From: a virus
Lineage: Duplodnaviria; Heunggongvirae; Uroviricota; Caudoviricetes
DNA length: 42,103 nt
Virus record (IMG/VR): IMGVR_UViG_2675903468_000011
Location: 1 to 42,103 of that record
Direction: 5' to 3' (one strand)
The position numbers and the translations under genes are program-made. A model generated the notes under the pieces. That model was not told where the DNA came from and made no database searches. It worked only from the letters and a program-made list of their open reading frames with translations. Shown here piece by piece: positions 1,064 to 40,037 of this stretch; the first letter of the stretch is position 1; each line of letters opens with the position of its first letter.

Positions 1064-1609
1064 ATGAACATTAGTGAACTTAAAAACTGTATACACTATG
1101 AAGTAATAGGTTATAAACGCCATTTTTCCTGGCGAAAAGCGATTGTTCGCGCAATAAAACACAGAAGATTACGTTATTTATTTTGGTGGCGCATAGCCAA
1201 ATACCTTTTTGATAAAGGCGGATACTGTCGGAAGATTGCGGGAAAAATAGAGCGTTTCATTCTTGATAAATATAATGTAACCGTTCCCTTAACTGTAAAT
1301 ATTGGTAAAGGGTTCGACATATCTTATCTCAATGGCGTTGTTATCGGTCACAAAGTTACAATAGGTGAAAATTGTTCAATTAAGCCTGGAGTAACTATTG
1401 GACTTCGCGGTGAATTTAATGATATGGATATTGTCATAGGAAATAATGTAACCATTGGCTGTAACGCCACCATCCTTGGTGGCAAAGTGCATATAGGGAA
1501 TAATGTAAAAATAGGAGCTCATGCATTGGTACTGCATGACATTCCTGATGACTCCACATTCATTACTAAATTTCACTCTGAAATTATTTATAACTCATCT
1601 CACACATAA
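1064..1609 (+). CDS. Hexapeptide-repeat (left-handed beta-helix) acetyltransferase, serine/sugar O-acetyltransferase-like
   Basis: Repeated [LIV]-G-x-x-x-x hexapeptides (VVIGHKVTIGENCSIKPGVTIG...VIGNNVTIGCNATILGGKVHIGNNVKIGAHALV); very AT-rich gene and upstream region, unlike surrounding phage DNA. Confidence 0.7.
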   Translation: MNISELKNCIHYEVIGYKRHFSWRKAIVRAIKHRRLRYLFWWRIAKYLFDKGGYCRKIAGKIERFILDKYNVTVPLTVNIGKGFDISYLNGVVIGHKVTIGENCSIKPGVTIGLRGEFNDMDIVIGNNVTIGCNATILGGKVHIGNNVKIGAHALVLHDIPDDSTFITKFHSEIIYNSSHT

Positions 1610-1619
1610 TTCCGTTTAA

Positions 1620-2192
1620 TCACAGCTCTGGCCATACGATATCCGGGGCTGTATTTATATCAATCCGACTCACTAATACCCGGTATTTTTTCCAGGAAGA
1701 TAGCATCGATACTTCCTCATCAGTTGCCATTTCAAAATTAACAGCATCCTGCAGAATTGTTATGTTATCAGTGGCTTCCTGGATTAATCTTGCCTTTTTC
1801 TCTTCCGCCTCCCGGATCCGGAACAGTTTTTCTCCTTCTGCATCTTTCACCCAGGCTGTGCCGTTCCACTTCTGAAACTCCCCATCCGGCGACAACCAGG
1901 TGACGTTTTCCGGTAATGGGCCAAGTTCAGAAATAAATAACGCGTCGCCGGAAGCCACGTCATAAACCGTTTTACCCCGATGATCTTCAACGAGATGCCA
2001 CGATGACTCATCACTGTTGAAAACAGCCACGAAGCCAGCCGGAATATCTGGCGGTGCAATATCGGTACTGTTTGCAGGCAGCCCTGTATGGGGTGGAATA
2101 TATGCATCACCTTCACCAATAAATTCATTAGTTCCGGACAGCAGATTATAAATTTTTATGGTCCGTGATTGTTCACTCATTCTGAATGCCAT
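1620..2192 (-). CDS. tfa: Tail fibre assembly protein (Tfa family)
   Basis: 190 aa; N-terminus [48 protein letters not shown] is the conserved Tfa chaperone signature of e14/Mu/lambda-type tail fibre assembly proteins; lies directly downstream of the tail fibre gene. Confidence 0.85.
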
Positions 2193-30751: not shown

Positions 30752-32053
30752 ATGCCAGACGTTCATGCACAACTTTCTCCATCATCAGCGCATCGATGGA
30801 TGCGCTGCCCAGGAAGTCTGGCGCTGGAGGCCACACAACCAGATAAAGAAACAACTTTTGCAATCGAGGGCACTGCAGCGCACGCGCTTGCTGAAAAAGT
30901 TCTACGAAACAGGCAAAGCCACCCGGAACACTACGCCGGATGCAATGTTTCTATGTTTCTCGGCTCATACCCCCTTCGCGAAAATCCTGATGATACATCT
31001 GGCCCACAGGTGGATGATGAAATGGTCGAAGCCGTTGGCCGGTATGTTGATACGGTCTGGACTCTTGCACAGAATAATGAACTATTGGTTGAACAACGTG
31101 TTGATTTCTCACATATAACGGGTGCGGAAGAATCTTTCGGAACTGCCGACGGCATAATCATCGCTGGTAACGAATTACAAATCCACGACCTGAAATATGG
31201 CAAAGGCGTCCGCATTGATGCAGAACAAAATGAGCAACTACAACTGTATGCTCTGGGTGCGCTCGAACAATTCAGCATGCTGTATGACTTTGAGACTGTA
31301 AGATTATTTATTCACCAGCCAAGGCTCAACCACGTTTCAGAATGGTCGTTAACCGTACAGGAACTTCAGTCTTTCGGTGAACGGGCACAGGAGGCCGCAA
31401 CCAGTGCGATCCTTGTTCTCAATATTGCTGAATGCGAAGGCATTGAGACACTACCGCTGGAAAACTTCATACCTGGAGAAAAACAGTGCCGCTTCTGTAA
31501 AGCAAAAGCTATTTGCACTGCCCAGAAAATGCAGCATTTACAAACAGCGGCCAGCGACTTTGAAGATCTGACAAAGCCTGTCAGCGAAATAATCACCAAT
31601 GCCAGCGCACGAGTACCTCTGTTAACCATTGAGCAGCTTGCGGAGATCTATAGTCAGGCCGACTTTATTGAATCCTGGCTAAAGGCAGTACGGGACCGGG
31701 TTCACAATGAACTCAATGCCGGACATCCGGTACCGGGGTTTAAACTGGTAACAGGAAAACAAGGTAACCGGGCCTGGAGTGATGAAGAGGCAGCTCGCGC
31801 ACTTCTGAAGGACCAGTTCAGGTACAAAACTGAAGAAGTATTCGACTTTAAACTTATTAGTCCCACAAAAGCCGAAAAACTTATCAAAAAGGCCAGTCCG
31901 CGCCGTTGGTCAAAAGTCGAGGCACTGATAACACGAGCTGATGGTAAACCCACCGTCGTTCCCGAGTCAGACCCACGCCCCGCACTCAATATCAACCTTA
32001 TAAATGATTTCGACGACGTATCCGACGATACGCTAACCGCAGACCTCATCTGA
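30752..32053 (+). CDS. PD-(D/E)XK-type nuclease with C-terminal Cys cluster (DUF2800-like)
   Basis: 433 aa; N-terminal [15 protein letters not shown] motif; Cys cluster [10 protein letters not shown] suggestive of Fe-S; upstream of DUF2815-like and DNA polymerase genes. Confidence 0.6.
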
Positions 32054-32068
32054 TTTAAGGAAATACCC

Positions 32069-32617
32069 ATGAAACTGAAGCTGAACAATGTTCGTCTGGC
32101 CTTCCCGTCTCTGTTTGAAGCTAAAACAGTAAACGGCGAAGGCGATCCACGTTTCTCCGCAGTATTTTTAATGTCTCCCAAACACCCACAACTGGAAGAA
32201 ATCCGTAAAGCTATGAAGCAGGTAGCGAAGGAAAAATGGGGGGAGAAGTGGGAGTCCATTTATAACCAGCTGGAGAAAAAACTCAATCTGTGCCTGCATG
32301 ATGGTGATGAAAAAGCAGAGTATGAAGGCTTTCCCGGCAATTTCTTCCTGAACGCTGCTAACAAAGCGCGCCCAGCTGTTCTTGATCGCGATCGTTCGCC
32401 ACTAATTCAGGCTGATGGACGTCCCTATGCAGGGTGCTATGTAAACGCCGTTATCGATATCTGGGCACAGGACAATAATTTCGGTAAACGCATTAATGCC
32501 TCACTCGGCGGAGTCCAGTTCCTGCGAGACGGCGATGCATTCGCTGGCGGCGGAGTGGCAAGCGCTGACGATTTCGACGATATCAGCGAAGGTGCTGATG
32601 CTGAAGCACTGATTTAA
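32069..32617 (+). CDS. DUF2815-like protein (putative ssDNA-binding)
   Basis: 182 aa; N-terminus MKLKLNNVRLAFPSLFEAK; conserved partner of DUF2800 and phage family-A polymerase. Confidence 0.55.
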   Translation: MKLKLNNVRLAFPSLFEAKTVNGEGDPRFSAVFLMSPKHPQLEEIRKAMKQVAKEKWGEKWESIYNQLEKKLNLCLHDGDEKAEYEGFPGNFFLNAANKARPAVLDRDRSPLIQADGRPYAGCYVNAVIDIWAQDNNFGKRINASLGGVQFLRDGDAFAGGGVASADDFDDISEGADAEALI

Positions 32618-32643
32618 AGCATCAATGTATCAGGTCGATAATA

Positions 32644-33243
32644 TCATTTGACCTGATACTTACTTGCATCTACTTTCAATAGCTGTAAATTATACTTATT
32701 TATAACTTCTCGCCCCGGGAAAAGAGTCCAGAACATAAAAACCGTAAACAAACAAAACAACATTACAACAACGCCAAGAACCATATAAACAGTACCCTTA
32801 TTTAGCAACAAACACAGAAATATTAGGCCATACACCAAATAAAAAATAGCTGCAATTTTAGAATACAAGCGATATCGTTTATATTTACCTTTATAACGTA
32901 TAAAAAATCTATCATATTTACATTGAATATGAGGTGCTAAGAACCACCACCGCCAAGATGGCATATCTAATTCAGAATACGTTCTTATATAAAGAATTAA
33001 CGGCCTAAGTTTCAAATTAACCATACCCAAGATGCTTTTTTTGATTTCTCTTTTTATTTCTGCCTTCATAAACTCTAACTCAGAAGGATCAATATACTCC
33101 CGATAATTTTCAAGAATATGTGAGAATTTTGTTGTTTTCGACAAAAACCAACTAACATCATTCAATAATTTATAAACACCCACTGCTGCGGTTATACCTG
33201 GGATTATGAGTCCGACAAGTGCAATAACATCTTTTATTTCCAT
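32644..33243 (-). CDS. Membrane protein, hypothetical (opposite-strand AT-rich insertion)
   Basis: 199 aa; N-terminal TM (VIALVGLIIPGITAAVGVY) and two C-terminal TMs (IAAIFYLVYGLIFLCLLL, VLGVVVMLFCLFTVFMFWTLF); markedly AT-rich; antisense to the surrounding replication operon. Confidence 0.55.
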   Translation of the reverse strand: MEIKDVIALVGLIIPGITAAVGVYKLLNDVSWFLSKTTKFSHILENYREYIDPSELEFMKAEIKREIKKSILGMVNLKLRPLILYIRTYSELDMPSWRWWFLAPHIQCKYDRFFIRYKGKYKRYRLYSKIAAIFYLVYGLIFLCLLLNKGTVYMVLGVVVMLFCLFTVFMFWTLFPGREVINKYNLQLLKVDASKYQVK

Positions 33244-33269
33244 ACAACTAACCCTTCGGAATAAATACC

Positions 33270-35333
33270 ATGTCCAATATACTATGGGGCGACCTGGAAA
33301 CCTATTGCGAAATCCCTATTACGAACGGCACCCATGCGTATGCCGAAGGCGTTGAAGTGATGCTGTTCGCATGGGCTATCAACGACGGGCCAGTAAACGT
33401 ATGGGATATCACTGCTGGTGGCGGTATTCCACACGAATTATACGAAGCAATCGCAGCCTCTGAAACCCTGCTTTATTTCCATAACTCTCACTTCGACCGC
33501 ACCGTTCTGCGTTATGTAATGCCGCGACTGGCACCGCCAGTCGAACGTTGGCGTGACACGATGGTGCAGGCGCTGGCGCACGGTCTCCCGGGGTCTCTGG
33601 GGGAACTCTGCGAAGTACTAGGCGTCCCGCAAGACAAAGCGAAGGACAAAGAAGGTAAAGCGCTGATCCAGCTGTTCTGTAAGCCACGCCCGAAAAACAG
33701 CAAACTGCGTCGGGCCACCAGTAAAACCCACCCGGAAGAATGGCGGCGCTTTGTTGCTTACGCCGGACTGGATATCGAGGCAATGCGCGAAGTCTATAAA
33801 CGTCTGCCGAAGTGGAATTATCAGGGGACAGAGCTGGCGCTCTGGCATCGTGATCAGCAGATCAACGACCGGGGCGTCTGCATGGACATGCAACTCGCGC
33901 GCGCTGCGATCGAAGCGGTAGACCAGGAGCAAAAGCGCCTGGCAAAGCGTACACAGGAAATGACTGATGGCGAAGTGCAGGCAGCCACACAACGGGACGC
34001 GTTGATTAAGCACATCGTTGAATCCTACGGTGTGGAGCTACCAGACATGCAACGCAGTACCCTAGAACGTCGTATAGCCGACCCCGATTTACCATCTGCC
34101 GTGAAAGAACTGCTGGCTATCCGCCTGCAAGCCAGTACTACCAGCACCAGTAAATACAAGGCACTAATGAAAGGCGTAAGCCACGACGGGCGCTTACGCG
34201 GTACGCTACAGTTCTGCGGGGCGTCGCGTACCGGGCGCTGGGCCGGACGGCTATTCCAGCCCCAGAACCTTCCCCGCCCTTCACTAAAACAGGAACAAAT
34301 AGACGAAGGCATCGAAGCACTGAAAGCCGGATGTGCAGACCTGCTGTTTGACAATATCATGGAACTAACCAGTTCAGCGTTACGTGGCTGCATTATCGCG
34401 CCAACAGGCAAAAAACTGGTGGTAAGTGACTTGTCGAACATTGAAGGCCGTATGCTGTCATGGCTGGCAGGAGAAGAATGGAAACTGAATGCATTCAGAG
34501 AGTACGACGCCGGAACGGGTCCGGACTTATATAAACTGGCGTATGCAAAAGCTTTTGATATTGCACCAGATGATGTTGATAAACACATGCGTCAGATCGG
34601 TAAAGTCATGGAACTCGGTCTGGGTTATGGTGGTGGTGTGTCGGCCTTCATCACTTTTGCACTGGTTTACGGTCTCGATCTCGACGAGCTGGCAAACGCT
34701 GCACTGCCAAACATTCCCCGCGATGTTATCCGCGAGGCGAAAAGCTGGTACGGCGAATCGGTTAAACGTAAGTCAACCTACGGGCTTTCTGAACGGGTAT
34801 TTATCGCCTGCGACTCACTTAAACGTCTCTGGCGCAGGGCGCACCCGGCGACCTGCGATTTCTGGTACGAACTGGAGCGCACCGTCCGCACTGCAATCGC
34901 CACACCGCAAAAAACATTGTATTGCGGCTATCTTAAAATCCGCCGCGATGGCGCGTGGCTGCGCATACAGCTACCATCCGGGCGCGCACTCTGCTACCCA
35001 TCCCCGTCCATCGAGAAGGGGAATATCACCTATCAGGGCGTTAACTCCTACTCGCGCAAATGGCAGCGGCTCAAAACCTACGGCGGAAAGCTGGTGGAAA
35101 ACGTCACTCAGGCGGCCGCCCGCGACGTTCTGGCCGGAAACATGCCGCTGATCGAGGATGCCGGTTACAGCATTGTGCTGACGGTACACGATGAGGTGAT
35201 CACCGAAGCGCCGGACACAGACGATTTTAACGATACGGCGCTTTCCGCGCTGCTCTCCACTAACCCCGAATGGGCGCCCGATATCCCGCTGAACGCTGGC
35301 GGCTTCGAGGCGTACCACTACCGTAAGGATTAG
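33270..35333 (+). CDS. Family-A DNA polymerase (3'-5' exonuclease plus polymerase domains)
   Basis: 687 aa; exonuclease-like N-terminus ([10 protein letters not shown]...[12 protein letters not shown]); downstream palm/fingers region ([10 protein letters not shown]...LTVHDEV). Confidence 0.75.
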
Positions 35334-35386
35334 CTGATCGCTGTCATTGCTGCTTTGCTAAATATTGCTTATTTTATAGGAAAATA

Positions 35387-36148
35387 ATGATGCAGGATCT
35401 CAATGAAATGGCTCTCAAATACCCACACCCTGTCGAAACTTTTCGTCAATTTTTAGTCGAATCCGGATTTGATGTTACCGGAGAAGAAAACAAAGCCGGT
35501 CATGATTGTTATCGTTTAAGTAATGGTGCCATCATAACGCTTTACCACACCGGAACGATTTTGATTCAAGGATCACAAGCGGCAAAACCAGAGGTTGAAG
35601 CCATTATTAATGAACACTTGGGTAATGCGCCAGCTCAACGAGTTCAGCCAGCCCTGGTTCAAGAGCCAGCCAAAAAGATTTTCATCGTTCACGGTCACGA
35701 CCATGCAGCAAAAGAGCAGCTTGAGCTCATTCTTCATAAGCTTGGGTTACCTGATCATTTTATTTTGCAGAATACAGGTGGTACTGGACTTACGATAATT
35801 GAAGAACTTGAGCGTGAAATTGGTCAAGGGCAGACAGCGACTCGTTTCGGCATTGTTCTTCTCACTCCCGATGATGTGGGATACTCCAAAAGAGACGGTC
35901 AAGAAGCAGCCCTGCCCAGGGCTCGTCAAAACGTAGTTCTAGAAATGGGGATGTTGTTATCATCACTCGGCCGCAGTAACGTGGTCATCTTGCAGAAGCA
36001 ACACCTTGAACAGCCTTCTGATGCTGCGGGTATTCTTTATCTCAACTTTAATGATCATGTTCGAGAAACTGTACCTCGCTTAATCCAGCGCCTTAAACAG
36101 GCCGGTTTCACATTTAATGAAGCTCAAATAGCGAACGCTTCATCTTAA
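35387..36148 (+). CDS. TIR-like domain protein (N-terminal unknown domain plus C-terminal TIR-like nucleotide-binding fold)
   Basis: 253 aa; C-terminal motifs KKIFIVHGHDHAAKEQLE, GIVLLTPDDVG, RQNVVLEMGMLLSSLGRSNVVIL resemble the bacterial TIR-like (COG4271-type) family from memory; own ribosome-binding site and downstream terminator. Confidence 0.5.
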   Translation: MMQDLNEMALKYPHPVETFRQFLVESGFDVTGEENKAGHDCYRLSNGAIITLYHTGTILIQGSQAAKPEVEAIINEHLGNAPAQRVQPALVQEPAKKIFIVHGHDHAAKEQLELILHKLGLPDHFILQNTGGTGLTIIEELEREIGQGQTATRFGIVLLTPDDVGYSKRDGQEAALPRARQNVVLEMGMLLSSLGRSNVVILQKQHLEQPSDAAGILYLNFNDHVRETVPRLIQRLKQAGFTFNEAQIANASS

Positions 36149-36170
36149 TCAATCATTTTCCTAAAAAGTA

Positions 36171-36196
36171 AAAAGCCCTGCAAATGCAGGGCTTTT
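36171..36196 (+). terminator. Rho-independent terminator
   Basis: GCCCTGCAAATGCAGGGC hairpin followed by TTTTT directly after the TIR-like gene. Confidence 0.7.
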
Positions 36197-36213
36197 TACT
36201 TGAGGTAACCCCT

Positions 36214-36432
36214 ATGTCATTTAAATATCGGGACAGTCCGCTGTACTACCGGACTGCGCGGGAGGCTTTGCGCCTTGAGCAGTCCGGTGAATACGACCTG
36301 GCGGCGAAGGTCTGGGCCAAAGCAAACCGCGAATCACGTAACGAACTTAATCAGGACTGGAGCGAGCGCCGGGCTGATTTTTGCCTGATGCAGAGCATGC
36401 GCGAAAAGCGTAAGGCGGTGGACGATGCCTAA
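36214..36432 (+). CDS. Hypothetical small helical protein
   Basis: 72 aa from ATG preceded by GAGG; the track start at 36184 lies inside the terminator. Confidence 0.4.
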   Translation: MSFKYRDSPLYYRTAREALRLEQSGEYDLAAKVWAKANRESRNELNQDWSERRADFCLMQSMREKRKAVDDA

Positions 36433-36619
36433 CATCGATAATAAAGGGTGGGGTTTTCCCGCCCTGTCGAAAAAAGCGCATTTCTTTAATTCAGGGGAAG
36501 CCATATCGCTATGCGGTAAATGGATGTTCACCGGCATCAGGATTGATGAATGGCATGAACACCCTGAGAACTGCGCTACCTGCATGAAGAAACGCAAAAA
36601 ACAGGAAGGCGAAAAATAA
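36425..36619 (+). CDS. Small Cys/His-containing protein (possible zinc-binding)
   Basis: 64 aa; C-x(n)-H-x-H-x(4)-C-x(2)-C pattern (LCGKW...WHEHPENCATC); overlaps neighbours. Confidence 0.4.
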   Translation: MPNIDNKGWGFPALSKKAHFFNSGEAISLCGKWMFTGIRIDEWHEHPENCATCMKKRKKQEGEK

Positions 36620-36888
36620 TGGCTTACGAACGTGAAAGCCTTATCGAAAAGCACCTCGTCGCCGAAGTGAAAAAGGCTGGCGGGTTGGCCTTTAAGTTCG
36701 TGTCACCCGGTCGCCGCTCGGTACCGGATCGCATTGTCCTGCTCCCCGGCGGTCGCCTCGTTTTCGTTGAATGCAAAGCACCCGGCAAACCACCACGCCC
36801 CGACCAGCTGCGCGAGCACGAACGGCTACGCGCGCTGGGCTTTACCGTGGTGGTACTGGATAGCAAAAATCTGGAGGGGATATTATAA
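36619..36888 (+). CDS. VRR-NUC domain nuclease
   Basis: 89 aa; PD-(D/E)XK-like core (PDRIVLLPGGRLVFVECKAP). Confidence 0.6.
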   Translation: MAYERESLIEKHLVAEVKKAGGLAFKFVSPGRRSVPDRIVLLPGGRLVFVECKAPGKPPRPDQLREHERLRALGFTVVVLDSKNLEGIL

Positions 36889-36889
36889 T

Positions 36890-37450
36890 TTAATCAGTGA
36901 CTTTTTGGTTCTGCTTCTGGTTCTCAAGCATACCTTGAAGTTCAGAATTATCATTTGCGGCAGTTTGCTGATGCTCATGATATTTTTCTTGCGTATAATT
37001 CCTTTCTTTTAACTTTTGTTCATAGTTATTAGAAATAATATCATGACGGTCTTGCAATACTTGTTCAAGTTGATTTTTAAAGTCGTTTATTTTATCTTCG
37101 GAGATCACATTTTTATATTTTTCAATATCACGACGAAGCTCTTTTTCTTTTTTCTTGTTAATACTTAACAACTGTCGATTAACACTGCCTAGTGACCATT
37201 TAAACCCTATCGATTTTATCCAGTGAGCCAAAAACATAGCACAACTAGGAAGTGCTAATAAAAGAAAAGGCTTAATTGAATTTAAATCAGAATCGATATG
37301 TGGGATATGCCCATCCCACGAGGCAACAAGTATGGTCAAAAGCCCTGTGACACCGCCAGCAGCTACATTTGAGAGCAGAGGAACTTTTTCGTAACTATCT
37401 GGCTTAGAGGCGCTACTCAAACGCACCTCCTTTGATTGTTCTTCCAGCAC
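36890..37450 (-). CDS. Membrane protein with C-terminal coiled coil (cassette gene C)
   Basis: 186 aa (alternative TTG start near 37420 after AAGGAGG); two TM segments (VAAGGVTGLLTILVASW, IKPFLLLALPSCAMFLAHWI) then Lys/Glu-rich heptad region; AT-rich. Confidence 0.55.
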   Translation of the reverse strand: MLEEQSKEVRLSSASKPDSYEKVPLLSNVAAGGVTGLLTILVASWDGHIPHIDSDLNSIKPFLLLALPSCAMFLAHWIKSIGFKWSLGSVNRQLLSINKKKEKELRRDIEKYKNVISEDKINDFKNQLEQVLQDRHDIISNNYEQKLKERNYTQEKYHEHQQTAANDNSELQGMLENQKQNQKVTD

Positions 37451-37661
37451 GAATAGCAGTCATCGCAATTTTGTAAAATTCGTCGTCAGAAGAAACATCG
37501 ACTACATCCCGACGAACAGTTCCTTCCGTGTCGATGTATTCAAGTACAAGATGGTGCTTAGATGTAAGCGCAAAGCGTAACCTATCAAACATCATCTTGA
37601 AAACCCAATACAATACAGGAAGAAGGCTAAAAAAAGCCAGCCAGAAAGCAAAAGCAATCAT
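37413..37661 (-). CDS. Small single-pass membrane protein (cassette gene B)
   Basis: 82 aa from ATG preceded by GGGAGGGG; N-terminal TM MIAFAFWLAFFSLLPVLYWVF plus soluble C-terminal domain; stop lies inside the SD/start of gene C. Confidence 0.5.
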   Translation of the reverse strand: MIAFAFWLAFFSLLPVLYWVFKMMFDRLRFALTSKHHLVLEYIDTEGTVRRDVVDVSSDDEFYKIAMTAIRAGRTIKGGAFE

Positions 37662-37683
37662 AGCCCCTCCCCATGTTAGCCTG

Positions 37684-38562
37684 CTATAAGATGCCGTGTA
37701 CTGTAACAACTATGTACGTTTTGTCCAGTGAATTCAAGTTTTCACGAATGAGCAAATCAACGTAGTAGGCATCGCTAAAAACACCGGGCTCTCTTCCAGT
37801 ACTAACACGTTGCAAGAACTCATTATCCTCTATAGATACGCTGATGGTTTCATCGTCATAGTTGACTCGCCAGCCAGTGTTTTTGTCCTTATGGATGGTC
37901 AGAAATGTGATTGGGGCCTCTTCAATCACCCTCTCAGACAAGGATTGCTCGACAGGAACACGCCGATATCTGAAAGGTTCAATACCATCTTCATGTACAT
38001 TAACTAACTCCACCCCTTGCTGGGTTGAAATCTTAAGCGATTCATACCCCTCCTTTTGCAAAGGGTTATGTATTAACTTCGATAACGATTTACGTATGCT
38101 CGGGGAAGCAAGTAAAGGTCGGAAATAGGAAGGAGCTATAATTTCCTCACCATCATCCATAATTATTTTACAATCTCCTTCCGCAGTTAAAGTCAACCGC
38201 CGTATTTGCCTACCATTAATTTGACGAATTAGGTCAATAAGAGTATTTCCTGCGGCAAGCGCGGCTGTGCCTCCGATACCAATAATGCTCAGAATATTCA
38301 AGTGATCAAGCGGATTTTGAATAATATCAATCAAATATTCGAATGAGCCTTCTCTGAATGGCTCAACTTCAACATTAATATTCTCGCTAGTACCATTGAC
38401 AACCAAATTAACTTCTTTCAGCAGGCTATTTAGACCATTTAATGACTCAGTTAAAACATCCAAATCTATTTTATGATCTGCTAGCGCTGGCCCATCATAT
38501 TTAACCACTAGCTTATCTATTATATTTTCTTCTTGCTGAATATCAGTGCTATTTGACGTCAT
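37684..38562 (-). CDS. Hypothetical soluble protein (cassette gene A)
   Basis: 292 aa; AAGGA ribosome-binding site; AT-rich; no recognisable motif; first gene of three-gene minus-strand cassette. Confidence 0.55.
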   Translation of the reverse strand: MTSNSTDIQQEENIIDKLVVKYDGPALADHKIDLDVLTESLNGLNSLLKEVNLVVNGTSENINVEVEPFREGSFEYLIDIIQNPLDHLNILSIIGIGGTAALAAGNTLIDLIRQINGRQIRRLTLTAEGDCKIIMDDGEEIIAPSYFRPLLASPSIRKSLSKLIHNPLQKEGYESLKISTQQGVELVNVHEDGIEPFRYRRVPVEQSLSERVIEEAPITFLTIHKDKNTGWRVNYDDETISVSIEDNEFLQRVSTGREPGVFSDAYYVDLLIRENLNSLDKTYIVVTVHGIL

Positions 38563-38639
38563 AACCGTTCCTTTTTAAGACAATAATTAAAGTTAATCAA
38601 ACCGTTGCTACTTAAATTCACTTATGAGGACACAATAAC

Positions 38640-40037
38640 ATGGCCTATGCTATGTTTTCACCCCGCCCTTATCAAGACCTCATCATCAACCACGAAATAG
38701 ACACCTTGCGCTGCAACATCTGGGCAGGCATGGGTATGGGTAAAACCGTGGCGACGCTCACCACGCTGGAAGATCTCTTTATAGCGGGAGCGGAGACTCA
38801 GCCCGCGCTGGTTCTCGCGCCGCTGCGCGTGGCGGCCAGCACCTGGCCGGATGAAGCGGTTAAATGGGGGCATCTGCGCAATATCGAGGTGCAGCCGATT
38901 GTCGGTAATGCCAAAGCGCGCGCGGCGGCGCTGGCGAACAGTAACGCCAGCGTGTTTACCATCAACTACGACAATCTGGTCTGGCTGGTCGAAGAGCTGG
39001 GCGGCCGCTGGCCGTTCGGTACCGTCATCCCCGACGAAAGCACCCGACTGAAATCCTTCCGGCTGCGCGGGGGCGGTAAGCGCGCGGCGGCGCTGGGCAA
39101 GGTGGCGCATAAGTATGTCCGGCGCTGGATGAATCTCACCGGTACACCAGCGCCGAATGGCCTGGTTGATTTGTGGGGGCAGGCGTGGTTTGTGGATCAG
39201 GGGCAGCGCCTCGGGCGAACTTACGGCGCCTTTACCTCCCGCTGGTTCAACTCAATTCAGTTTCCGGGGCAGAGCTGGACGAAGCTGGAGCCTTTCGCAC
39301 ACTCGCAGGACGAAATACAGCGTGCACTGGCCGACGTGACTATCTCCCTTGATGCGGCCGACTGGTTCGATATCAAAGAGCCCATCCATAACGTGATCCG
39401 CGTGGACATGCCGCCGAAGGCACGCCAGCAGTATCGTGAAATGGAAAAGGAAATGTTTCTCGAACTGAACGGCGAAGGCATCGAAGCGCCGAACGCTGCG
39501 GCAAAGACAGTGAAGTGTCTGCAAATTGCCAGCGGCGCAGTGTACACCGACGACGCCGGGAGCTGGTCAGAACTGCACGACGCGAAGCTGCAGGCGCTGG
39601 ACAGTATTCTCACCGAAGCAGCTGGCGCACCGGTGCTGGTGGCCTATCACTGGAAACACGATCTTGAACGCTTGCTTAAAGCATTCCCTCGCGGTCGTCA
39701 CCTCGACCAGGATCCACAGACACTGCGCGACTGGAATTCAGGAAAGATTCCTGTTCTCTTTGCACACCCTGCCAGCGCGGGCCACGGCCTGAACATGCAG
39801 GACGGCGGGAATATACTGGTATTTTTCTCACACTGGTGGGACCTGGAGCAGTATCAGCAAATTATTGAACGTATCGGCTCAACCAGACAGATACAGGCCG
39901 GACACAATCGTCCGGTATTTATTCACCACATTATTGCTGCCGACACTATGGACGAAATGGTGATGGAGCGGCGCAACTCAAAACGAACAGTGCAGGACAT
40001 CCTGCTCGATGCCATGAAAAAGAGAGGTATAGCATGA
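38640..40037 (+). CDS. SNF2/DEAD-like helicase
   Basis: 465 aa; Walker A GMGMGKT, DEAH-like box VIPDESTRLK, motif LTGTPAPNG; higher GC than neighbours. Confidence 0.8.
   Translation: MAYAMFSPRPYQDLIINHEIDTLRCNIWAGMGMGKTVATLTTLEDLFIAGAETQPALVLAPLRVAASTWPDEAVKWGHLRNIEVQPIVGNAKARAAALANSNASVFTINYDNLVWLVEELGGRWPFGTVIPDESTRLKSFRLRGGGKRAAALGKVAHKYVRRWMNLTGTPAPNGLVDLWGQAWFVDQGQRLGRTYGAFTSRWFNSIQFPGQSWTKLEPFAHSQDEIQRALADVTISLDAADWFDIKEPIHNVIRVDMPPKARQQYREMEKEMFLELNGEGIEAPNAAAKTVKCLQIASGAVYTDDAGSWSELHDAKLQALDSILTEAAGAPVLVAYHWKHDLERLLKAFPRGRHLDQDPQTLRDWNSGKIPVLFAHPASAGHGLNMQDGGNILVFFSHWWDLEQYQQIIERIGSTRQIQAGHNRPVFIHHIIAADTMDEMVMERRNSKRTVQDILLDAMKKRGIA

Follow-up and report, generated by a model that had tools for sequence, protein, structure and literature searches.

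An exchangeable, AT-rich membrane-protein gene in the replication module of enterobacterial prophages: a candidate anti-phage family

The gene considered here occupies positions 32644–33243, on the minus strand, of a 42,103-nucleotide (nt) stretch of DNA from a tailed virus (Caudoviricetes; IMG/VR record IMGVR_UViG_2675903468_000011, positions 1–42,103; the window below means this whole stretch), and encodes a predicted inner-membrane protein of 199 amino acids (aa). Comparison with related prophages supports the conclusion that it is an accessory, exchangeable gene of the moron type, standing outside the replication operon whose genes flank it. Prophage-encoded membrane exclusion proteins are common, and few of them are understood; to our knowledge, nearly no enterobacterial cases besides P22 SieA and HK97 gp15 come with a mechanism of any kind. 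Judged by analogy, the protein represents a new, uncharacterized candidate family of this known kind, that of prophage-encoded membrane exclusion or defense proteins. From its sequence and contexts, we incline, with somewhat more confidence than doubt, to an anti-phage role of some kind.

The gene and its exchangeable position

On the left, the gene is bordered by that of an Enc34-type single-stranded DNA-binding protein (SSB; 32069–32617, plus strand; DUF2815, Pfam PF10991, E 2.4e-44), and on the right, by that of a family A DNA polymerase (33270–35333, plus strand; DNA_pol_A, Pfam PF00476); a DUF2800/PD-(D/E)XK nuclease gene identified by Pfam lies upstream. The whole gap between the open reading frame (ORF) and either neighbor is 26 nt, and the ATG start codon of the gene and the start codon of the polymerase are divergent, 26 nt apart. 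The initial annotation, made from the sequence letters, had described an opposite-strand, AT-rich gene for a protein with three transmembrane (TM) segments between DUF2815 and the polymerase, and the ORF list, Pfam matches, GC content, and hydropathy all agree with this description.

The ORF is a real gene and not a chance reading frame, since its close homologs are exactly 199 aa long in ten out of ten clusters (from E. coli, Enterobacter, and Klebsiella), more distant relatives exist at 20–42% identity, those at 22–42% being of similar length and collinear with it, the ratio of nonsynonymous to synonymous substitution rates (dN/dS) is 0.29 when the gene is compared with a 69%-identical allele (0.05–0.085 in the flanks), and the AlphaFold2 (AF2) model, built on a 19-sequence alignment, has a mean predicted local distance difference test (pLDDT) score of 82.4.

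The GC content of the gene is 0.322, compared with 0.495 in the window and 0.47–0.54 in the flanking genes, and at the first, second, and third codon positions it equals 0.38, 0.29, and 0.30, compared with 0.62, 0.38–0.44, and 0.45–0.60 in the neighbors. The comparison with the flanks, proposed in the initial annotation as a check, thus bears out the claimed AT-richness both overall (0.32) and at third positions (GC3 0.30), and since the bias is seen at all three codon positions, amino acid composition alone does not account for it. However, the same annotation had taken AT-richness as a sign of horizontal acquisition, and this part is not supported in that form. Low GC content was found in every family member and in every context (0.29–0.40 in the family genes vs. 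0.40–0.52 in their loci), all members being 7–19 GC points below their surroundings, whatever the type of element and even at 20% protein identity. Thus, AT-richness is a stable family-wide trait, and neither a timestamp nor a proof of recent acquisition.

Similarity to prophages with other cassettes (L004, L005) ends exactly at 32617/32618 and 33269/33270, where the SSB gene stops and the polymerase gene starts, and therefore we treat the interval 32618–33269 as one exchangeable cassette, and the place between the two genes as a slot. No direct or inverted repeats flanking the cassette were found; the possibility that it contains an RNA gene or the ends of a mobile element was rejected, given the lack of flanking repeats and of Rfam matches.

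The SSB and polymerase flanks are present in 159 out of 5426 complete E. coli genomes, always on the chromosome. In 87 of these 159 prophages the slot is occupied by a family member, namely, the allele of the window (13 genomes), the 69%-identical 199-aa allele (seven genomes, some copies having an extra forward BRO-N/Ant gene), or a 209-aa protein of the phrog_10579 type (67 genomes), and in about 59 it is filled with unrelated genes, that is, an Nmad5 gene and an unrelated antisense gene for a soluble 229-aa protein (about 27 genomes), or a divergent Nmad5 gene and an unrelated antisense gene for an 89-aa protein with two TM segments (32 genomes). The former pair, consisting of a nucleotide-modification gene of the Nmad5 family and the antisense gene, whose 229-aa product has no family match, was located at L004:2169–3493, and the latter, at L024:3051–4026. 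Neither the 89-aa nor the 229-aa slot protein, nor a 186-aa protein encoded elsewhere in the window, is related to the 199-aa family. In every variant examined, some antisense gene is situated directly upstream of the polymerase, and different cassettes are bordered by identical SSB and DUF2800 proteins. The proposal of the initial annotation that the gene is a moron is supported as far as its accessory, exchangeable nature goes, resting on the unrelated genes in about 59 out of 159 slots, the opposite strand, the gene's own Shine–Dalgarno sequence and 3′ hairpin (described in the last section), and the presence of its relatives in other mobile elements. No description of the slot was found in the literature searched.

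Location in a replication module brings up the possibility that the protein is a replication accessory, tethering the phage replisome or DNA to the membrane, for which the phi29 membrane proteins p16.7 and p1 would be the parallel. The same position is indeed retained in phages whose SSB is only 61% identical, and a 105-aa stretch with 22 Lys or Arg residues, together with a predicted basic β-hairpin, could bind nucleic acids. However, the gene is on the opposite strand and is replaced in about 59 out of 159 prophages by unrelated genes, including those for the soluble 229-aa and the 89-aa proteins; its products are 20–69% identical beside replication proteins that are 97–99% identical; family members are found in satellites, plasmids, and islands lacking the replication module; and the gene remains intact where the polymerase is frameshifted or gone. 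This distribution largely refutes the replication role, which we consider very improbable.

In E. coli prophages, the slot alleles are 20–69% identical and the flanking proteins are 97–99% identical. When the two 199-aa alleles are compared, the synonymous divergence (dS) amounts to 0.58 for the gene vs. 0.15–0.20 for the flanks, that is, three to four times higher, indicating that the cassette has an older, separate history, and that the alleles have been exchanged and are not merely evolving fast in place. Homologs at 20–34% identity (among them P0017, P0020, P0027, and P0007 from Klebsiella) were found in the same place and in the same orientation in more distant phages, so that across the slot-bearing phages identity ranges over 61–99% for SSB, 64–98% for the polymerase, and 20–69% for the membrane protein. 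The presence of distant homologs at the exact position argues that the slot is a long-standing home of the family, not the site of a one-off insertion; judged from these comparisons, the family appears to be a long-term resident of the slot and not a sporadic insertion. According to the initial annotation, homologs consistently belonging to a conserved replication operon would speak against a moron. The positional part of this was observed, as the gene keeps its place in phages with SSB of only 61% identity, but the operon part was not, as the gene is never in the operon orientation and is absent from some of the slots. In a rough neighbor-joining tree built without bootstrap, the slot and non-slot members intermingle.

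Protein family, topology, and predicted structure

An exhaustive phmmer search among 1.8 billion proteins yielded 15 representatives of the 199-aa family, with full-length matches at E-values from 2e-85 to 9e-5, and a profile search for further members added no new ones. The commonest alternative occupant of the slot in E. coli, the 209-aa protein, belongs to phrog_10579 according to the PHROGs database (E 7e-107), and phrog_10579 joins the family at an hhalign probability of 98% (E 2e-13) when the family profile is built without it; the window protein itself matches phrog_10579 at E 0.005 only. Judged by these matches, the family appears small, uncharacterized, and Enterobacterales-centered, including phrog_10579, with the window protein forming a separate subfamily outside any curated model and the 209-aa type being its true but distant relative. 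The traits by which we define the phrog_10579 superfamily, that is, collinearity, a length of about 190–225 aa, an N-terminal TM segment, a basic helical domain, an RFFIRY-GKYKR hairpin, two further TM segments, and a P...N...LLKID tail, are all found in the window protein. The family alignment does not contain any conserved stretch of 7–10 columns.

Hydropathy places the TM segments of the window protein at approximately 6–24, 130–148, and 152–170, with 22 Lys or Arg residues in the 105 aa from TM1 to TM2, Lys and Tyr accounting for 9.5% and 7.5% of the whole protein, respectively. In the AF2 model, TM1 (3–29) is followed by four helices (36–105), a β-hairpin carrying the RFFIRY motif (106–115), TM2 (120–146), TM3 (151–174), and a tail helix (178–188), and pLDDT exceeds 90 over the β-hairpin, the TM hairpin, and the tail. 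Of the topology given in the initial annotation, one N-terminal and two C-terminal TM helices are retained, in agreement with hydropathy, but for the basic “loop” between them the model predicts a folded domain, made up of four helices and a β-hairpin (pLDDT 82). The positive-inside counts are consistent across 19 family members (a short acidic N-terminus, 19–26 Lys or Arg residues in the central domain, and a basic tail), and hence the predicted topology is N-out, with the basic central domain (approximately 30–119) and the conserved tail (176–199) likely residing in the cytoplasm and the TM2–TM3 hairpin at approximately 130–170; the TM2–TM3 loop comprises 3–16 residues in these members.

Residues F113, R125, P176, N185, and D192 are invariant or near-invariant in the family alignments and map to the predicted cytoplasmic face. 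Among them, P176 and N185 are invariant in the predicted cytoplasmic tail, whose family pattern is [F/L/Y]-P-x-x-K-x-I-x-x-x-N-x-x-L-L-K-I-D. The most variable part between close alleles is the TM hairpin, with 55% identity and dN/dS of 0.44, compared with 76% and 0.18 in the cytoplasmic domain of the same alleles.

The arrangement of the TM segments matches that of TolQ (19–37, 140–158, and 171–189), and about 20 of the top 50 sub-threshold Foldseek matches in the Protein Data Bank (PDB) are ExbB, TolQ, or ZorA chains, as if the protein were a mimic or a divergent relative of a TolQ/ExbB/ZorA stator subunit, plugging into or poisoning the host Tol or TonB motors. However, all these Foldseek matches have E-values of at least 1 and template-modeling scores of at most 0.29, hhalign against E. 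coli TolQ gives a probability of 0.9%, and there is no match to Pfam MotA_ExbB. Moreover, conservation in the MotA/TolQ/ExbB family is highest in the TM2–TM3 hairpin, which in the 199-aa family is the least conserved part. Homology to TolQ/ExbB is rejected on the hhalign probability and on this conservation pattern, and we find a stator-related role hardly credible.

Genomic contexts and candidate functions

Outside the slot, one family member (P0018) adjoins psu in a P4-like satellite, a PDC-M36A protein being encoded next to it. The psu–int interval is the defense hotspot of P4 (PMC9122126; PMC13586616), and none of the experimentally tested P4-hotspot systems resembles the 199-aa family. 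Another member (P0023) is convergent with an adjacent Dsr1 gene (PADLOC, E = 0) and lies downstream of a umuD/umuC-like pair; a third one (P0025) is two genes away from a gene for an OLD/GajA-like ATPase. Pantoea plasmids carry copies between an integrase and parBA-rep genes, the adjacent gene in one PLSDB record (L025) encoding a PDC-S20/PifA-like P-loop NTPase (E 1e-82). Further members were observed 45 nt downstream of umuC and in its orientation, near hha, and on an IncFII-type plasmid with an integrase and a pyocin S gene nearby, and the Enterobacter copy P0004 (70% identical) occupies the cargo end of a CP4-type island that also carries an antirestriction gene, RadC, and CbtA/CbeA. In total, a known or candidate defense gene is found within two genes in four of about eight non-slot contexts.

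Three distant members are linked to umuD/umuC-like operons (L017–L019, L011, and L022). This linkage may reflect SOS-controlled expression or simply a common cargo region; for the window gene, SOS control, an idea suggested by the umuDC-linked relatives, was rejected, as there is no LexA box near it.

Two further copies bear on the retention of the gene. In Enterobacter sp. CP143759.1, the 199-aa ORF is intact at L028:4920–5671, in a region whose DNA similarity to the window runs from 33325 down to 32573 and includes stubs of both flanks, namely, a decayed polymerase 5′ end with the ATG destroyed (GGACAT to GGTCCT) and the SSB 3′ end; to judge from these stubs, this copy is a domesticated relic of the slot whose phage has been lost. 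In the enterotoxigenic E. coli (ETEC) strain H10407 (L026, NC_017633.1, 2986477–2989227), the polymerase is annotated as frameshifted and the antisense 209-aa gene is intact, which hints at retention of the membrane gene in a decaying prophage. Together, the relic and the ETEC copy indicate that the gene is kept without phage replication.

The gene is solitary, exchangeable, placed on the opposite strand, and kept in decaying elements, it has divergent alleles and defense neighbors, and it encodes a small inner-membrane protein; it is for these reasons that we lean toward an anti-phage protein. The P4 psu–int hotspot and the Dsr1, PDC-S20/PifA-like, and OLD/GajA-like neighbors provide circumstantial support for this assignment.

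Alternatively, the gene could be non-defense cargo, serving host physiology (lysogenic conversion, stress, or envelope functions) or the persistence of the mobile element (as a toxin-like or exclusion function). Copies located beside plasmid partition and replication genes, beside hha, directly downstream of umuDC in the orientation of that operon, and terminally in the CP4-type island with CbtA/CbeA fit such a role, and the intact relic and the ETEC copy show that the gene is kept by the host or the element, not why. On the other hand, no antitoxin partner is conserved, and 199 aa is far larger than type I toxins; extreme allele divergence beside near-identical flanks typifies conflict genes rather than conversion genes of the housekeeping type; and half of the roughly eight non-slot contexts have the defense genes described above. 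We therefore regard non-defense cargo as unlikely.

As to how an anti-phage protein of this type might act, we tentatively consider, by analogy with P22 SieA, an inner-membrane protein that is expressed from the prophage and blocks phage entry. In P22-like prophages, SieA, an inner-membrane protein of 164 aa with three predicted TM segments, is encoded at a fixed position; its three types are about 25% identical and share a conserved cytoplasmic tail motif, and it prevents the injection of DNA, acting via the ejection proteins gp16 and gp20 (PMC10883804). We observed that sieA runs antisense to gene 16, converging with it across a gap of 22 nt, and has GC content of 0.34 (GC3 0.29), and located a type B SieA gene in prophage HS1 of E. 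coli HS (L031:25463–26101).

Both SieA (164–212 aa) and the 199-aa protein are small multi-pass inner-membrane proteins with an N-terminal TM segment, C-terminal TM segments, and a conserved P...N-containing motif in the cytoplasmic C-terminal part. The genes for both are single, strongly AT-rich, and on the opposite strand, converging with the upstream gene across 22–26 nt, and both have a fixed genome position shared by types whose identity to one another is only about 25%. They differ in the size of the TM1–TM2 cytoplasmic domain (about 100 aa here vs. about 55 aa in SieA) and in location, the 199-aa gene belonging to the replication module and sieA lying beside the ejection-protein genes; the 199-aa family, moreover, is also found outside phages. 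In the alignments with SieA types A and B, residues P176 and N185 fall on the P and N of the motif FxRYPGEAxxFNK, with a 2-residue difference in spacing and with the R, Y, E, and A positions not shared, and the matches to SieA always cover the last TM segment and the tail motif.

In the mechanism we propose, the gene would be independently transcribed as a moron of a temperate E. coli phage, and its product, made in the lysogen, would guard the lysogen against other phages from the inner membrane, interfering, as P22 SieA does, with the DNA-delivery channel built by incoming phages. The variable TM hairpin would set the specificity. Highly divergent alleles have been exchanged in the slot by recombination at the gene borders, and members of the family have spread to satellites, plasmids, and genomic islands. 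With similar reserve, it is possible that the mobile elements of Enterobacterales have in this family a new anti-phage system consisting of a single gene, that the slot is an immunity slot swapping hyper-divergent alleles of one inner-membrane protein as specificity cassettes, and that the family is a very distant branch of SieA.

The topology could also fit abortive infection, in which the basic cytoplasmic domain would sense a phage product and the TM hairpin would oligomerize and depolarize the membrane, so that one polypeptide would be both sensor and effector, as in SieB, RexB, and the 2-TM effectors of CBASS (cyclic oligonucleotide-based anti-phage signaling systems) and retrons. About 130 of the 199 residues are predicted to be cytoplasmic, the five conserved residues F113, R125, P176, N185, and D192 are assigned to the cytoplasmic face, periplasmic exposure is limited to 3–16 residues, and the defense-hotspot contexts are the same as for an entry block. 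There are weak matches to the PADLOC models “Effector 2TM” (E 0.0015, in one out of 16 members) and “RTasSLATT” (E 0.049) and to Pfam DUF4231 (E 0.024, in two out of 19 members), of which the first and the last are at noise level, as is DUF2207_C (E 0.038); the matches to 2-TM effectors are single-member, sub-threshold, and expected by chance for TM-rich proteins. No Pfam match to known exclusion or abortive-infection models was obtained at E ≤ 0.1, and no toxicity or self-immunity partner gene is conserved alongside. Furthermore, it is the TM hairpin and not the putative sensor domain that varies most, the reverse of what is expected of a sensor in an arms race. As the highly variable TM hairpin fits an in-membrane specificity determinant, we slightly favor the entry block over abortive infection, which we consider somewhat unlikely.

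Several results weigh against a SieA-like anti-phage protein. The hhalign probabilities for the family vs. SieA are 5.3% for type A, 3.7% for type B, and 2.8% for the joint A and B profile (P 0.007–0.016), which is not significant, and a block-shuffle test gives p of about 0.005 when the full score is taken and 0.05 when the best domain is; the SieA copies in the phage collection are all at least 98.8% identical to that of P22, and the SieA profile is limited to two sequences. Since the similarity is not significant, the protein is not filed here as a member of the SieA family, the resemblance being suggestive at the tail motif only. The predicted periplasmic exposure is small and most of the mass and of the conserved residues would be cytoplasmic, which fits a cytoplasmic sensor at least as well. 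Scans of the 199-aa protein and of 16–19 family members against Pfam, NCBIfam, and PADLOC, libraries that hold models for SieB, Imm, and RexB, gave no significant match, nor did structure searches with the 199-aa protein against PDB and BFVD; the PHROGs scan of the family yielded phrog_10579 alone. Consensus promoter scans upstream of the gene yielded no convincing or conserved promoter. There is no defense gene near the copies at plasmid par/rep regions, downstream of umuDC, and near hha, and some proximity to defense genes is to be expected of whatever cargo mobile elements carry. Finally, no paper naming the family accessions or phrog_10579 was found in the literature searched.

Two other known systems offer partial parallels. 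HK97 gp15 is an exclusion protein expressed from the prophage (PMC3594210). The likeness to gp15, and to the moron concept in general, consists in independent transcription (predicted for the 199-aa gene), deviant GC content, location inside an operon of a temperate phage, and a small inner-membrane product; the differences are that gp15 is YebO-related, is encoded in the tail operon, and has no sequence relation to the 199-aa protein, and that the 199-aa gene is one of several alternative slot occupants and not an “extra” insertion. With defense hotspots of mobile elements, such as P4 psu–int, the slot shares a fixed site between conserved genes and alternative cassettes swapped among near-identical elements; unlike them, it is situated inside the SSB/polymerase replication module of Enc34-type prophages and a single divergent family prevails in it in place of many unrelated systems, its occupants being at most candidate defense genes.

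The family may serve as a compact test case, being a single gene with a natural allelic series, that is, proteins 20–69% identical in prophages 97–99% identical. If the function is indeed anti-phage, this series would map the specificity determinants directly, and the slot would add a new kind of defense hotspot, one inside a replication module; if it is not, this is one more uncharacterized phage cargo gene. Should the family be a distant branch of SieA, SieA-type entry exclusion would extend well beyond P22-like phages.

Expression signals and neighboring variable genes

A perfect 10-bp inverted repeat (GTATCAGGTC / GACCTGATAC, with a 13-nt loop) at 32627–32659 overlaps the last codons and the stop codon of the coding region and lies between the convergent stop codons. 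Its RNA fold has an energy of -20 to -22 kcal/mol (z of -3.1 and -4.1), and it is likely a transcript-end hairpin, albeit one without a U-tract; other alleles are followed by analogous but unrelated hairpins, none of which has a U-tract.

At the other end, a Shine–Dalgarno sequence, GAAGGG (33252–33257, minus strand), is found 8 nt upstream of the ATG, and every allele has a Shine–Dalgarno-like element of its own. A candidate −10 element is contained in CCATAGTATA (33276–33287, minus strand), which is invariant in six out of six upstream regions compared, including the Enterobacter relic with the destroyed polymerase ATG. The −10-like TATATT within it ends 32 nt before the ATG of the membrane gene, inside polymerase codons 3–6 on the other strand; the −35 element is poor. 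The first 60 nt or so of the polymerase gene probably carry the candidate promoter of the membrane gene on the other strand, and the extent of the relic suggests that about 80 nt upstream may be enough for expression.

The window is a prophage, with minus-strand tail-fiber assembly and structural genes, a VapE-type primase, a CI-like repressor with an S24 peptidase domain, the replication module, an SNF2 helicase, and an integrase. Directly after the polymerase, a gene at 35387–36148 (plus strand) encodes a 253-aa TIR-domain protein (Pfam CAP12-PCTIR_TIR, E 6e-31; PADLOC PDC-S35, E 3e-109). It is missing in L001, the closest match in E. coli, whose polymerase is followed by an ANR regulator, and is present in L003, L005, L008, and L010; this presence and absence marks a second variable position directly beside the slot.

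Further along, an antisense AT-rich gene at 36890–37450 (minus strand; GC 0.365, GC3 0.32) encodes a 186-aa protein of phrog_15878 with one TM segment and a long charged helical region, which is unrelated to the 199-aa family (hhalign probability 1.5%), and a gene at 37684–38562 (minus strand) encodes a 292-aa protein with a match to the PADLOC candidate PDC-S42 (E 3e-37) and a weak one to Pfam DUF7946. Given the TIR gene and PDC-S42, the replication-to-integrase arm of the prophage appears to be rich in defense candidates. The combination seen in the window over 32000–38700 was found in no complete genome, the best coverage being 71%, which indicates that the neighboring variable positions reassort independently.

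At the opposite end of the window, a gene for a hexapeptide-repeat acetyltransferase (1064–1609, plus strand) lies in a patch of low GC content (0.37) beside the tail-fiber assembly gene (1620–2192, minus strand), and resembles another moron, one possibly involved in surface modification.

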